Source of the DNA: Candidatus Binatia bacterium
GTDB lineage: Bacteria > Desulfobacterota > Binatia > UBA1149
Reading direction: 5' to 3'
Length of the DNA: 64,000 nt
NCBI GenBank assembly: GCA_046754245.1
Contig: JBHHVL010000001.1
Location: 48,577-112,576, forward strand
Shown: piece by piece, positions 24,707 through 28,739 of the stretch
How the letters are laid out: every line of letters begins with the position of its first letter
Numbering within the stretch: the stretch's first letter is position 1
Position numbers and translations under genes: made by a program
The notes under the pieces: model-generated
Told to the model about the DNA's origin: nothing
Database searches by the model: none
The model's input: only the letters and a program-made list of their open reading frames with translations

Positions 24707-26257
24707 TTGGTTATTATTCTCTCGTCCGTCGGTTGCCGGCCGGACCCCGCTCCCACGGCGACCGACACCCTGCGATTGGCGTTAGAGGCCATGCCCACAC
24801 AGCTCGATCCCCGCTACGCGACCGATGCCCACTCGTCGAGAATCGGAAGCCTGGTCTTCGCTTCCCTCACGAGAAGCAATGCGAGTGGATCCGTACAACC
24901 CTACCTCGCCGAGTCCTGGTCCCGCGAGGGGCCACGGCTCTACCGTTTCCGTATTCGCAGGGACTTTCGCTTCCACGACGGAACCCCCGTCGCGGCCGAA
25001 GACGTAGTCGCCACCTATCACAGTCTGATGGATCGGAGCATGGCCTCCCCTCGACGAGCGACACTTTCCTCCGTCGAGTCGGTAAGCGTGGGCCAAGGAG
25101 AAGCCGAAGTCGTGTTTCGGTTGAAAACCTCCGACGCTAGCTTCCTGGACGCGACGAGTGCGGGGGTGCTGCCACGCCGCTTCGCGGGTGAGAGGGATCT
25201 CGCTCCCGACGAGCTCGTAGGCAGCGGCCCGTACAGTATCGAGCGGGTAGCCGACGATGAATTGATTAGCCTGGTCGCGTTCGGCGACTTTGCCGATGGA
25301 CGACCGGCGATACCTCGGATTGAATTTCGAGTCATACCGGACGGCACCATGCGAGCCCTCGAACTGCAGCACGGCTCGATAGACATGGTACAGAACGCTC
25401 TCGACCCCGACACGGTAGACTGGCTTCGCCAAGACTCGACCGTTCTTTCCGTGCTTCGTTCGGCCTCCAACAGTTTTCAGTACATCGGTATGAATCTCGA
25501 ACATCCAGCGCTTTCGGATGTGCGCGTCCGCCGCGCGTTGGCGGTGGCAGTCGACCGTGAGGCCATAGTCGAGCATCTCCTGAACGGAAAGGCCAGGGTC
25601 GCGTCCGGCGTTCTCCCGCCTCACCACTGGGCCTTCGAGGGGAACGTGAGGCGTTATCACTATAACCCGGCCAGGGCGCGTTCGTTGCTCGAACGCGCCG
25701 GCCTGCAAGATCCCGATGGACCGGATGGTCCCCTGCCCCGCCTGCGGCTGAGCTACAAGACCACCACCGACGAGCTGCGGCGCCGCATTGCTGAAGCCAT
25801 CTCAAACCAGCTCGCCGGCGTAGGAATAGAGCTCCAGATCTTGTCCTATGAGTGGGGGACCTTCTACGCGGACGTCAAACGAGGAAGCTTCCACCTGTAC
25901 TCGTTGGCCTGGGTAGGGATCACCGATCCGGATATCTTCCGCACCGTTTTCCACTCCGACATGGCTCCTCCCGACGGGGCGAACCGCGGCAGGTTCAGCG
26001 ACCCAATCATCGATCGCCTGGTGGATCGCGCAAGGACCGTTTGCGGGCAGCGGACGCGAGCCCGGATCTACGCGCGAGTACAGAAACGGGCGGCTCGTCT
26101 GCTTCCCTACATACCGCTGTGGTGGCCGGACAACGTCGTCGTCGCAAACACCAGGCTCGAGAACTTCTCGCCCCACCCATCGGGGGATCTCTTTCTGCTG
26201 TGGAAGGCCCGTCTGGAGGACCCCGAGGATCTCCGGATCCAGGTCAGGCGCCCCTGA
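24707..26257 (+). CDS. ABC transporter substrate-binding lipoprotein (DppA/OppA family 5)
   Basis: Lipobox-like SSVGC, FRFHDGTPVAAEDV, VGSGPY, DVRVRRAL. True start uncertain. Confidence 0.88.
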   Translation: MVIILSSVGCRPDPAPTATDTLRLALEAMPTQLDPRYATDAHSSRIGSLVFASLTRSNASGSVQPYLAESWSREGPRLYRFRIRRDFRFHDGTPVAAEDVVATYHSLMDRSMASPRRATLSSVESVSVGQGEAEVVFRLKTSDASFLDATSAGVLPRRFAGERDLAPDELVGSGPYSIERVADDELISLVAFGDFADGRPAIPRIEFRVIPDGTMRALELQHGSIDMVQNALDPDTVDWLRQDSTVLSVLRSASNSFQYIGMNLEHPALSDVRVRRALAVAVDREAIVEHLLNGKARVASGVLPPHHWAFEGNVRRYHYNPARARSLLERAGLQDPDGPDGPLPRLRLSYKTTTDELRRRIAEAISNQLAGVGIELQILSYEWGTFYADVKRGSFHLYSLAWVGITDPDIFRTVFHSDMAPPDGANRGRFSDPIIDRLVDRARTVCGQRTRARIYARVQKRAARLLPYIPLWWPDNVVVANTRLENFSPHPSGDLFLLWKARLEDPEDLRIQVRRP

Positions 26258-26277
26258 CGGCCGCGTTTCCGCAGGGC

Positions 26278-26823
26278 TCAGCGCCGGCACGCGACCAGCA
26301 AGCCATCGACGTCGGGCTGATCGCCCGCTCCCGCGTCCCGATGAGCGAACAGCAGCTCGGGGCCCGGACCGATGACGAAGGTTCCTCCCTGCTGCCAGGG
26401 GTCGCCAGCCATCGCTCCCTGCCTGAATCCGGCTCCAAAGGCCCGAATACCCCTCAACATCGCACTGGGTCCGAGGGTACTGATCAGCCCCCTATTCAAT
26501 CTGAAGGCCCTGAAGCCGCGACGCTCTGGATCGACGTAGACCTCACCGGGAAAATCAAACGCCGACACGAAATCCTTCGCTTGTTCGGTGTTACCGTTTC
26601 CGATCGCGACCAGCGCGACCCCAGCCTGGTCGAGTTCATCCTTGATACCGGCCAAGGCAGCAGCCTGCTGCCGACAGAACAGTCAACCGAAATGGCGAAG
26701 AAAAGAAACCACCGCCCGGCGATTCTGCCAGAGGCTTTTCAGCTCTACCGTAGAGCCGTCTAGATCGGTAACCGTCAAGCCGGCAAGTACCGGCAAATCG
26801 AGGGATCTTCGCGACGCTGACAT
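26278..26823 (-). CDS. Selenocysteine-containing peroxiredoxin-like (AhpC/TSA-like, thioredoxin-fold) protein, UxxC motif, 181 aa
   Basis: ATG 26823 reads MSASRRSLDLPVLAGLTVTDLDGSTVELKSLWQNRRAVVSFLRHFG, then TGA (26683-26685), then LFCRQQ, continuing in frame into ORF 26278..26655 (YVDPER, QQGGTFVI). SECIS-like hairpin follows the TGA. Confidence 0.88.
26656..26685 (-). promoter_or_regulatory. Bacterial SECIS-like element
   Basis: UGA-CUGUUCUGUC-GGCAGCA-GGC-UGCUGCC: a 7-bp perfect stem with G-containing loop starting 10 nt after the UGA. Confidence 0.7.
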
Positions 26824-26977
26824 GCGACTTCTCTACCACCAGCCGGCCGATGAGCAAAACCGCCGAGGCAATGAAGCCCCCGGTCCGCTCTCGCGCAGTA
26901 CACCGTTTCGGCTTCGCACGCTCAGACGCCATGAATGGACTCGCCGGTCGCGGTCACAGCTGGTAAGCTCTCGCGCG

Positions 26978-27910
26978 ATGCTGATCTATACGCTAAGACG
27001 TCTCGCGCTCTTGGTTCCTACCGTGGTCGGCGTCGTCACCGTGGTGTTCTTCCTCATCCACCTCATACCTGGCGATCCCGTGGAAGTAATGCTCGGCGAG
27101 AGCGCGACGCCGGCAGACCGCGTCGAACTCAGACGGGCTCTCGATCTCGACCGGCCGCTCGGCAGTCAGTACCTGTCGTTCCTGGCGGCCACCGCCAGAG
27201 CCGACCTCGGCCGATCCATACACAGCGGCCAACCGGTCACGCGGGTAATCGCCGATCGACTGCCGGCGACCATACGGCTCACCATCGTGGCGATGGTCAT
27301 CGCGATGTTCATCGCCCTTCCTTTCGGCCTGCTTTCCGCCTGGAAACCGGGCAGTAGCATCGACAGGGCGTCGCTCCTAACCGCGATGCTTGGCGTCGCC
27401 ATACCCAACTTCTGGCTGGGGCCGATGCTCATACTGTTGTTCTCGATCGAGCTGGGATGGTTGCCAGTGTCGGGTAGCTCGACGCCGCTGCACCTCTTGC
27501 TTCCGGCCATTACGCTGGGAACCGCAATGGCCGGTCTCCTCGCGAGACTGACCAGGAGTACCGTGCTCGAGGCTCTCCACGAAGACTACGTCCGCACCGC
27601 CCGCGCAAAGGGGCTCAGCGAAGCAAGCGTCGTTGCACGCCATGCCCTTGCCAACGCACTCACCCCCTTGCTGTCAGTGCTCGGGCTTCAGTTCGGCGGC
27701 TTGCTGGCGGGATCGATCATCACGGAAACGATCTTCGCCTGGCCTGGTATCGGACGGTTGGTGGTGCAGGCAATACACACCCGCGATTATCCTGTCGTGC
27801 AAGGTTGCGTTCTGATAATCGCCCTGAGCTATGTGATCGTCAACCTAGCGACCGACCTCGCATACGCGCTGGTCAATCCACGAGTGAGGTACGGCAATGG
27901 CGATGGCTGA
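26978..27910 (+). CDS. Peptide/nickel ABC transporter permease (DppB-like)
   Basis: LIPGDPV, DLGRS, RLPAT, DYVRTARAKGL, RDYPVVQG; start moved to ATG 26978. Confidence 0.92.
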   Translation: MLIYTLRRLALLVPTVVGVVTVVFFLIHLIPGDPVEVMLGESATPADRVELRRALDLDRPLGSQYLSFLAATARADLGRSIHSGQPVTRVIADRLPATIRLTIVAMVIAMFIALPFGLLSAWKPGSSIDRASLLTAMLGVAIPNFWLGPMLILLFSIELGWLPVSGSSTPLHLLLPAITLGTAMAGLLARLTRSTVLEALHEDYVRTARAKGLSEASVVARHALANALTPLLSVLGLQFGGLLAGSIITETIFAWPGIGRLVVQAIHTRDYPVVQGCVLIIALSYVIVNLATDLAYALVNPRVRYGNGDG

Positions 27911-28739
27911 GCGACCTGGTCCTGGGTCCGGCGCTGGCAAGAACGTGAACCTCGCCGCAGGCACCCTGGTGTTCCTCGCCTTGGTACTGGTCGCGGTTCT
28001 TGCGCCGGTAATCACTCCCTACGGTCCTCACGTTCAGGTCCTATCCGAAGACCTTGGCCGTCCCAGCCTCGACCACCCCCTCGGCCAGGACAAACTCGGT
28101 CGCGACCAACTCTGCCGCCTCGCGTACGGGGCCCGCGTATCGCTCTACGTCGGTCTGTCCGCGTTCGCTTTGTCGCTGTCGATCGGACTGCTGGTGGGCT
28201 GCACGGCAGGCTATCTCGGAGGTGCCACCGACTTCTGGTTGATGAGGTTGGTAGACGTATTGATGGCTTTTCCCGGAATACTGCTGGCCATCACGCTTAG
28301 CGCGGTGCTGGGACCGGGCCTCAACAACGTCGTCGTAGCGCTCGGCGTCACCGGCTGGACCGGCTACGCCCGCCTCGCGCGCGGAGAGGTTCTAGGATTG
28401 CGGAGGAGCGACCACGTCGAGGCCGCTCGCGCGCTCGGTCTTCCAACGCGGCTGATCCTGCTTCGCCACGTCGTACCGTTACTCGCTGCTCCCATGCTCG
28501 TTCAAAGCAGTTTCGGAATCGCCGGTGCGATCGTCGCTGAAGCAAGTCTGAGCTTTCTTGGCCTCGGCGTTCAGCCACCGACACCTTCGTGGGGTTCCAT
28601 GCTTAACGAGGGTCGCGCTTTCATGCTGGTTGCGCCACACATGACTCTGTTCCCCGGCATCGCGATTCTCGTCACCGTTCTCGGTCTCAACGCCCTCGGC
28701 GACGGACTCCGCGACTACCTCGACACCCGTCTAGGTTAG
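27897..28739 (+). CDS. Peptide/nickel ABC transporter permease (DppC-like)
   Basis: HPLGQDKLGRD, GARVSL, EAARALG, LSFLGLG, PSWGSML, GDGLRD. Confidence 0.92.
   Translation: MAMAERPGPGSGAGKNVNLAAGTLVFLALVLVAVLAPVITPYGPHVQVLSEDLGRPSLDHPLGQDKLGRDQLCRLAYGARVSLYVGLSAFALSLSIGLLVGCTAGYLGGATDFWLMRLVDVLMAFPGILLAITLSAVLGPGLNNVVVALGVTGWTGYARLARGEVLGLRRSDHVEAARALGLPTRLILLRHVVPLLAAPMLVQSSFGIAGAIVAEASLSFLGLGVQPPTPSWGSMLNEGRAFMLVAPHMTLFPGIAILVTVLGLNALGDGLRDYLDTRLG

Follow-up and report, generated by a model that had tools for sequence, protein, structure and literature searches.

A gene cut short at an in-frame TGA in a Candidatus Binatia genome almost certainly encodes a PRX-like-2/SelL-related selenoprotein

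In the 64,000-nucleotide stretch of DNA analyzed here (the window), gene finders truncate one small gene at an internal TGA; it is almost certainly complete, the TGA being read as selenocysteine (Sec). Judging from sequence, we put the probability at roughly 93% that the gene is intact and encodes a cytoplasmic oxidoreductase of 181 residues with a thioredoxin fold, of the PRX-like-2/SelL-related type, in which Sec would be the attacking residue of the active site. The selenoprotein family is already catalogued and the gene reveals no new mechanism; what is new is the member found in this genome and the repair of its annotation. A preliminary description of the locus had called the selenoprotein hidden, which holds for the annotation of this genome and not for the literature.

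The 181-codon frame and its product

On the minus strand, positions 26823-26281 form a single frame of 181 codons (coding sequence 26281..26823) that starts with an ATG at 26823-26821, four codons downstream of an in-frame TAG (26835-26833), and contains an in-frame TGA at codon 47 (26683..26685, minus strand). The translation reads MSASRR...VVSFLRHFG-TGA-LFCRQQAAALAG..., with ...VVSFLRHFG-TGA-LFCRQQ... as the residues around the internal TGA, and the frame is closed by a second TGA (26278..26280, minus strand), within a few residues of which the C-termini of the family end (alignment A3). The preliminary description had drawn this frame, open back to the ATG at 26823 and with the TGA at codon 47, exactly as we find it. 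Read as Sec, codon 47 (U47) provides the first position of a UxxC redox motif, at the column where the family has Sec or Cys. The codon for Cys50, likely the resolving Cys of this motif, lies at 26674..26676 (minus strand), and the corresponding position is Cys in 51 of 52 full-length database proteins. Just 5' of the Sec codon is the conserved family motif RHFG (26686..26697, minus strand; alignment A4), in which R43, F45 and G46 never vary and H44 is conserved to at least 90%.

Only the tail of this frame is visible in the annotation. The list of open reading frames for the window shows a 125-aa product with a TTG start at 26655 (26278..26655, minus strand), as had been remarked from the outset, and the public protein for this genome, P0002, is likewise 125 aa long (99% identity, 69% of the query covered), which bears out the expectation that standard annotation would truncate the gene. 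Conservation in the family is highest in the columns of the beta strand, RHFG and the entire redox motif, all of which this tail would lack. The annotation is corrected here from a public 125-aa product that lacks the whole active site to a 181-residue selenoenzyme as the true product.

Profile searches of the protein were run with C written for U. The best model was Pfam PF13911 (AhpC-TSA_2, PRX_like2), with 85.6 bits and an E-value of 4e-24, passing the gathering cut-off of 27 bits. PF00578 matched residues 16-111 (3.4e-10) and PF08534 residues 19-107, both matches crossing the TGA. The NCBIfam model NF040769, 'SelL-related redox protein' (SelL_rel_redox), scored 120.3 bits over residues 16-176 against a cut-off of 120 with C in place of U, and 111.4 bits, below the cut-off, in a six-frame genome search where the TGA was not scored as a residue. 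Since the homology spans the TGA, as seen in the matches to PF00578 (16-111) and NF040769 (16-176), the two sides belong to one frame.

An AlphaFold2 model of the protein (mean pLDDT of 92.4, from a 53-row alignment) has residue 47 between a strand at 37-42 and a helix at 48-58 (alpha-1), which in the predicted structure is the classic active-site position of the thioredoxin fold. The best solved relative by sequence is human prostamide/prostaglandin F synthase, which matches residues 21-162 (E 2.7e-18) with its CxxC aligned to UxxC, and the same enzyme is also the best structural match, with a TM score of 0.84-0.86 on the target; a second structure entry is its C44S/C47S double mutant, with serines at both aligned positions. 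PrxQ/BCP peroxiredoxins and ResA rank after it in the fold search. A peroxiredoxin proper (PF00578) was considered and rejected: the motif of such proteins is PxxxTxxC/U, with the peroxidatic residue last, as given in PMC13188914, whereas FLRHFGULFC has no P...T and its Sec stands at the first position, not the last. The protein is thus peroxiredoxin-like by fold and thioredoxin-like by motif, and the label "peroxiredoxin-like" in the preliminary description stands for the fold and fails in the strict sense, the motif being of the thioredoxin type (U/CxxC) and not PxxxTxxC.

From this fold and motif, a catalytic cycle may be proposed in which the U47 selenolate would attack an oxidized substrate, either a disulfide or a peroxide or endoperoxide as in prostaglandin F synthase, and Cys50 would then resolve the intermediate, giving a selenenylsulfide that a thioredoxin-type reductant would recycle.

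Decoding of UGA and the Sec/Cys column in relatives

The genome, which is 97% complete in 147 contigs, contains the machinery for Sec insertion. Genes for SelA (545 bits), SelB (314 + 33 bits in one 728-aa frame) and SelD (363 bits), all above curated cut-offs, are adjacent on one strand of a single contig (C17:16099-20364). Moreover, selD has an in-frame TGA of its own in the context GGUAAK, which corresponds to the UxxK position that PMC13188914 gives for SelD. The Rfam model detects a tRNA-Sec at 66.1 bits, and ARAGORN calls it as tRNA-SeC with anticodon TCA. The use of Sec by this organism, initially supposed from the one gene, is therefore backed by selA, selB, selD and tRNA-Sec together, and the selenoprotein gene and the Sec-containing SelD show that the organism actively uses selenium.

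With the bacterial Sec insertion pathway as established (PMC13188914) for a basis, SelD would make selenophosphate and SelA would turn Ser-tRNA(Sec) into Sec-tRNA(Sec), after which SelB, carrying Sec-tRNA(Sec), would bind a hairpin on the translating mRNA and deliver Sec at codon 47 in place of release factor 2.

A different account would have UGA read as Trp or Cys and not as Sec, through near-cognate or suppressor decoding or a reassigned code. Some lineages do reassign UGA, and read-through of this kind would likewise keep the frame open. However, 24 of the 40 long non-overlapping open reading frames in the window stop at TGA, as does the gene itself, and this stop usage rules out reassignment of the code. 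The column concerned is moreover that of the redox Cys, making a classic Sec/Cys pair, and a dedicated tRNA-Sec, SelA, SelB and SelD are present, so that reading as a standard amino acid appears extremely unlikely.

Reading of the TGA as Sec was then compared across relatives. A six-frame search of 40 relatives returned 10 rows with one TGA within the match, and in 9 of these (E 6e-66 to 3e-10) the TGA falls exactly at this column, in the context RHFGU[IL]FC or RHY[GA]UIAC. The tenth (locus L035, G035:C77:40515-40769; E 9e-4) comes from a distantly related Prx-like gene whose in-frame TGA lies in GFWUPFCRSE and which probably encodes a UxxC selenoprotein of another kind. Nine rows without TGA are weaker matches, and the three inspected have Cys at the column (RH[TIV]GCPFA). 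The gene was not found by six-frame search in the 4 genomes searched from the same family, its distribution being patchy. In an even sample of 300 genomes from the phylum, 9 besides that of the window matched at E <= 1e-15, 8 of them with TGA and 1 with Cys at the column. Together with one contig of a Spirochaetaceae MAG (L100), the nine genes of the first search and the eight of the second give 18 other genes from 15 other genomes with TGA at this column (29-59% identity; 19 genes in 16 genomes including the window), and the frame is open on both sides of the TGA in all 18. Conservation of UGA in at least two different sequences is the criterion used in PMC1976440; here it is conserved in those 18 other genes.

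Cys occupies the column in 68 genes from 68 loci (57 by pattern, 11 read individually), a set gathered with a back-translated RHFGCLFC pattern and so biased towards Cys forms. The 51 full-length database proteins mentioned above have Cys at both motif positions, and the remaining one has Asp and Gly. These alignments confirm that the UGA takes the place of the first Cys of RHxGCxxC, where the preliminary description had put it, and the TGA, whose conservation in relatives it had named as a point to check, recurs in them. As for other short database hits, 14 of 21 start at the residue right after the Sec column (MFARQQ..., MFSRQQ..., MFCRE..., VLCRQQ...). Judged from protein starts and not from DNA, the same truncation is probably common in public protein sets, where it would skew the Cys/Sec counts of the family.

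The fourth motif position varies as well. It is Ala in the five nearest Sec forms from the phylum-level sample (L110-L114; U[MIV]FA[RK]QQ), and nine truncated database proteins (among P0005-P0019) begin with MFARQQ or MFSRQQ. By their sequences, many members of the family would be one-residue, Sec-only enzymes.

With the trait residue masked, 74 distinct domain sequences (19 Sec, 55 Cys) were used to infer a quick maximum-likelihood tree. In it, the protein of the window belongs to a clade of 7 Sec forms (SH-aLRT 99), all of which have the hairpin described below as type A; UxxC is found there only in the window protein and in a 59%-identical relative, the other five having UxxA. Overall, Sec forms occupy four places on the tree, and the minimum number of Sec/Cys changes is 5, at least 2 of which are forced by well-supported branches. 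The Spirochaetaceae contig L100 carries both a Sec form and a Cys form, about 1.7 kb apart (at 2203 and 3877), and these sit in different clades.

These comparisons bear on whether the locus might be dead, namely a Cys-form gene with a nonsense change from TGC or TGT to TGA, or one altered by a sequencing or assembly error. One base change is enough to turn either codon into TGA, many members of the family are Cys forms, and the absence of hits in the 4 genomes of the same family fits such an origin. Against it stand the 18 other genes with TGA at the same column at 29-59% identity and with frames open on both sides, the well-supported position of the window protein within a clade of 7 Sec forms, and the Sec machinery of the genome. 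Moreover, the 701 bases from 26200 to 26900 show 0 differing letters in one assembled contig from each of 4 sequencing runs, a comparison blind to rare variants, although these runs (2 samples from 1 study labeled as hydrothermal vent metagenome, depth 6.6-17.6) may be the source of this very assembly and are then not independent of it. The concern that reads might carry TGC or TGT at codon 47 is answered to that extent, all 4 run-level assemblies having TGA. We consider a pseudogene or an error very improbable, and the reading as an intact selenoprotein gene is preferred.

Hairpins and gene neighborhood

Downstream of the internal UGA lies a SECIS-like hairpin, GGCAGCA-GGC-UGCUGCC (26656..26672, minus strand), with a perfect 7-bp stem, a GGC loop and a 10-nt spacer, found just as the preliminary description had reported it. 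It lies inside the coding sequence for helix alpha-1, its loop is 17 nt from the UGA, and the 17-nt hairpin alone folds at -10.5 kcal/mol. The bSECIS model given in the legend to Fig. 2 of PMC13188914 asks for a 3-9 nt loop with G at the first two loop positions, a 4-16 bp stem, a UGA-loop distance of 16-37 nt and an MFE <= -7.5 kcal/mol. The window hairpin falls within all four constraints as published there, but these are loose, and a hairpin after the terminal TGA formally falls within them too, so that the model alone discriminates poorly. This second hairpin, GUCAGG-GGCG-CCUGAC (26243-26258, minus strand), has 6 bp, begins 19 nt on and folds at -8.7 kcal/mol (z -3.56); it overlaps the stop of the convergent solute-binding gene and is probably an end-of-gene structure shared between the two convergent genes, a reading adopted because the C-termini of the family end there.

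Folding energy was not informative. Relative to dinucleotide shuffles, the z-scores for the internal hairpin are -0.14 (76 nt), -0.59 (40 nt) and -1.84 (17 nt), unremarkable for DNA of 61% G+C, and the energy is uninformative as a test; the argument is built on comparison. Counted on both strands and in any frame, the window has 1669 TGA triplets, and 7 of them (0.42%) are followed by a perfect 7-bp Watson-Crick hairpin with a 3-8 nt loop at a spacer of 8-14 nt; two of these seven are this same palindrome, counted once per strand. The plus-strand TGA involved (26643, 10 nt before the palindrome) is out of frame with both long plus-strand open reading frames there and is a coincidence of the symmetry of the hairpin.

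Comparison among relatives separates two types of hairpin. In type A, the nine closest Sec forms share the window hairpin in register, and 93.7% of 63 cells pair, compared with 19-79% in controls with slid partners. Four of the seven pairs never vary, and two change on both sides (G-C to U-A and G-C to A-U). Covariation scores 0.183 here and 0.082 in shuffles, 4 of 500 of which attain the observed value; only 3 cells are changed on both sides, and 114 of 500 shuffles have at least as many doubly changed pairs. As the invariant pairs lie in codons of conserved residues (RQQAA), part of this conservation is at the protein level. Type B, found in the 10 other Sec forms, is a hairpin GUCGCGC-AGUU-GCGCGAC that starts 18 nt after the UGA, in which 94.3% of 70 cells pair and five pairs have changed on both sides, with 0 of 500 shuffles reaching any of the measures. 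Altogether, a hairpin of at least 6 bp within 45 nt is present in 19 of 19 Sec forms, at +10/11, +14 or +18/19, versus 31 of 57 Cys forms, where its positions are scattered. Median MFE is -15.3 kcal/mol in Sec forms and -13.3 kcal/mol in Cys forms, with a Mann-Whitney p of 0.026 that is overstated, kin not being independent.

The hairpin also bears on whether the UGA simply terminates translation, Sec insertion being inefficient or non-functional and the product just a peptide of 46 residues or the tail of 125 residues that starts at TTG 26655. The choice of the 125-aa frame by gene callers and the unremarkable energy of the hairpin would agree with termination, and the runs listed as holding the locus included no RNA run. 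However, the position of the hairpin is conserved among Sec forms, selD in this genome needs such recoding as well, and the tail would have neither the strand nor RHFG and the redox motif. For these reasons termination is a very improbable explanation, and insertion of Sec at codon 47 remains the preferred one.

On the history of the family we offer a tentative and rather doubtful scenario, in which Sec would have been gained or lost several times, with the SECIS carved each time from a different stretch of alpha-1 codons (10 versus 18 nt after the UGA), and the clade of the window protein would be losing its resolving Cys, leaving Sec alone to catalyze. If that were true, this clade would be a natural series for how replacement of Cys by Sec rewires a redox motif.

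The selenoprotein gene lies on the strand opposite to the genes of a peptide/nickel-type ABC transporter, in a gap of about 700 bp between an SBP_bac_5 solute-binding gene (24707-26257, plus strand) and two permease genes (about 26978-27910 and 27897-28739, plus strand). One permease frame, listed with its start at 26588, is extended too far and runs across the selenoprotein gene. A promoter scan of 26000-27200 gave no sigma-70-type site. Within the gene and immediately 5' to the UGA there is a terminator-like stem with a T-rich run (26725-26706, minus strand), which is likely due to chance, two such sites being found where 0.8 are expected.

No conserved operon partner for stand-alone Sec forms was found among the loci compared. 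Their neighbors differ: a flavin amine oxidase at 2 loci, an EamA transporter at 2, a TetR regulator at 2 and the ABC transporter in the window. In five relatives from the same order (L024, L025, L026, L037 and L027) the Sec domain is N-terminal in a frame of 454-524 aa with a C-terminal adh_short (short-chain dehydrogenase) domain. A gene for a di-heme cytochrome c peroxidase adjoins the Sec gene in 3 of 3 loci of a distant Sec subgroup with RHYGUIAC or RHYAUIAC (L038, L040 and L029), and a BioB-like radical SAM gene does so in 2 of the 3. The neighboring cytochrome c peroxidase gene hints at a peroxide-related role for this subgroup.

Comparison with known selenoproteins and Prx-like proteins

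Among prokaryotic selenoproteins, an 'AhpC/TSA family protein' (pfam13911/cd02970) with a UxxS motif is listed as predicted in PMC9312934 and PMC13188914, the latter crediting it to its reference 60, PMC1976440. As listed there, it shares the Pfam family and the position of Sec with the window protein, which has UxxC. One truncated relative in the database, P0010, begins with MFSRQQ... and would be UxxS.

The RHFG-[C/U]xxC motif of the window protein is common to members of NF040769/PF13911, and a database protein 44% identical to it, P0015, bears the NCBI name 'SelL-related redox protein', a phrase for which no use was found in the literature searched. Eukaryotic SelL is linked to the family of the window protein by this NCBIfam name. 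Shchedrina and colleagues are said to have described in 2007 that the two Sec residues of SelL form a UxxU diselenide. SelL is referred to as 'a Prx-like protein' in prokaryotes and eukaryotes in PMC2398784, and is stated to carry two Sec residues in PMC3473315. Identity with eukaryotic SelL, so described, was rejected: the window gene has a single TGA and Cys at the fourth motif position, whereas SelL has two Sec.

The 'Prx-like thiol:disulfide oxidoreductase' (PF00578, UxxC/UxxU) and the 'Prx-like 1-3' selenoproteins of the GOS set, as presented in PMC13188914 and PMC2398784, resemble the window protein in their thioredoxin fold, UxxC motif and predicted redox role, and are routinely mis-annotated as it is here. 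At the Pfam level, however, these selenoproteins are a different subfamily, the best model for the window protein being PF13911.

The closest solved structure is that of human prostaglandin F synthase (PRXL2B; PDB 9us9 and 9usa), at 25-28% identity to the window protein. The substrate of PRXL2B is prostaglandin H2, an endoperoxide that the enzyme reduces, and we know of no bacterial counterpart of that compound. PRXL2B is eukaryotic and has Cys where the window protein has Sec, but the two match in fold and motif.
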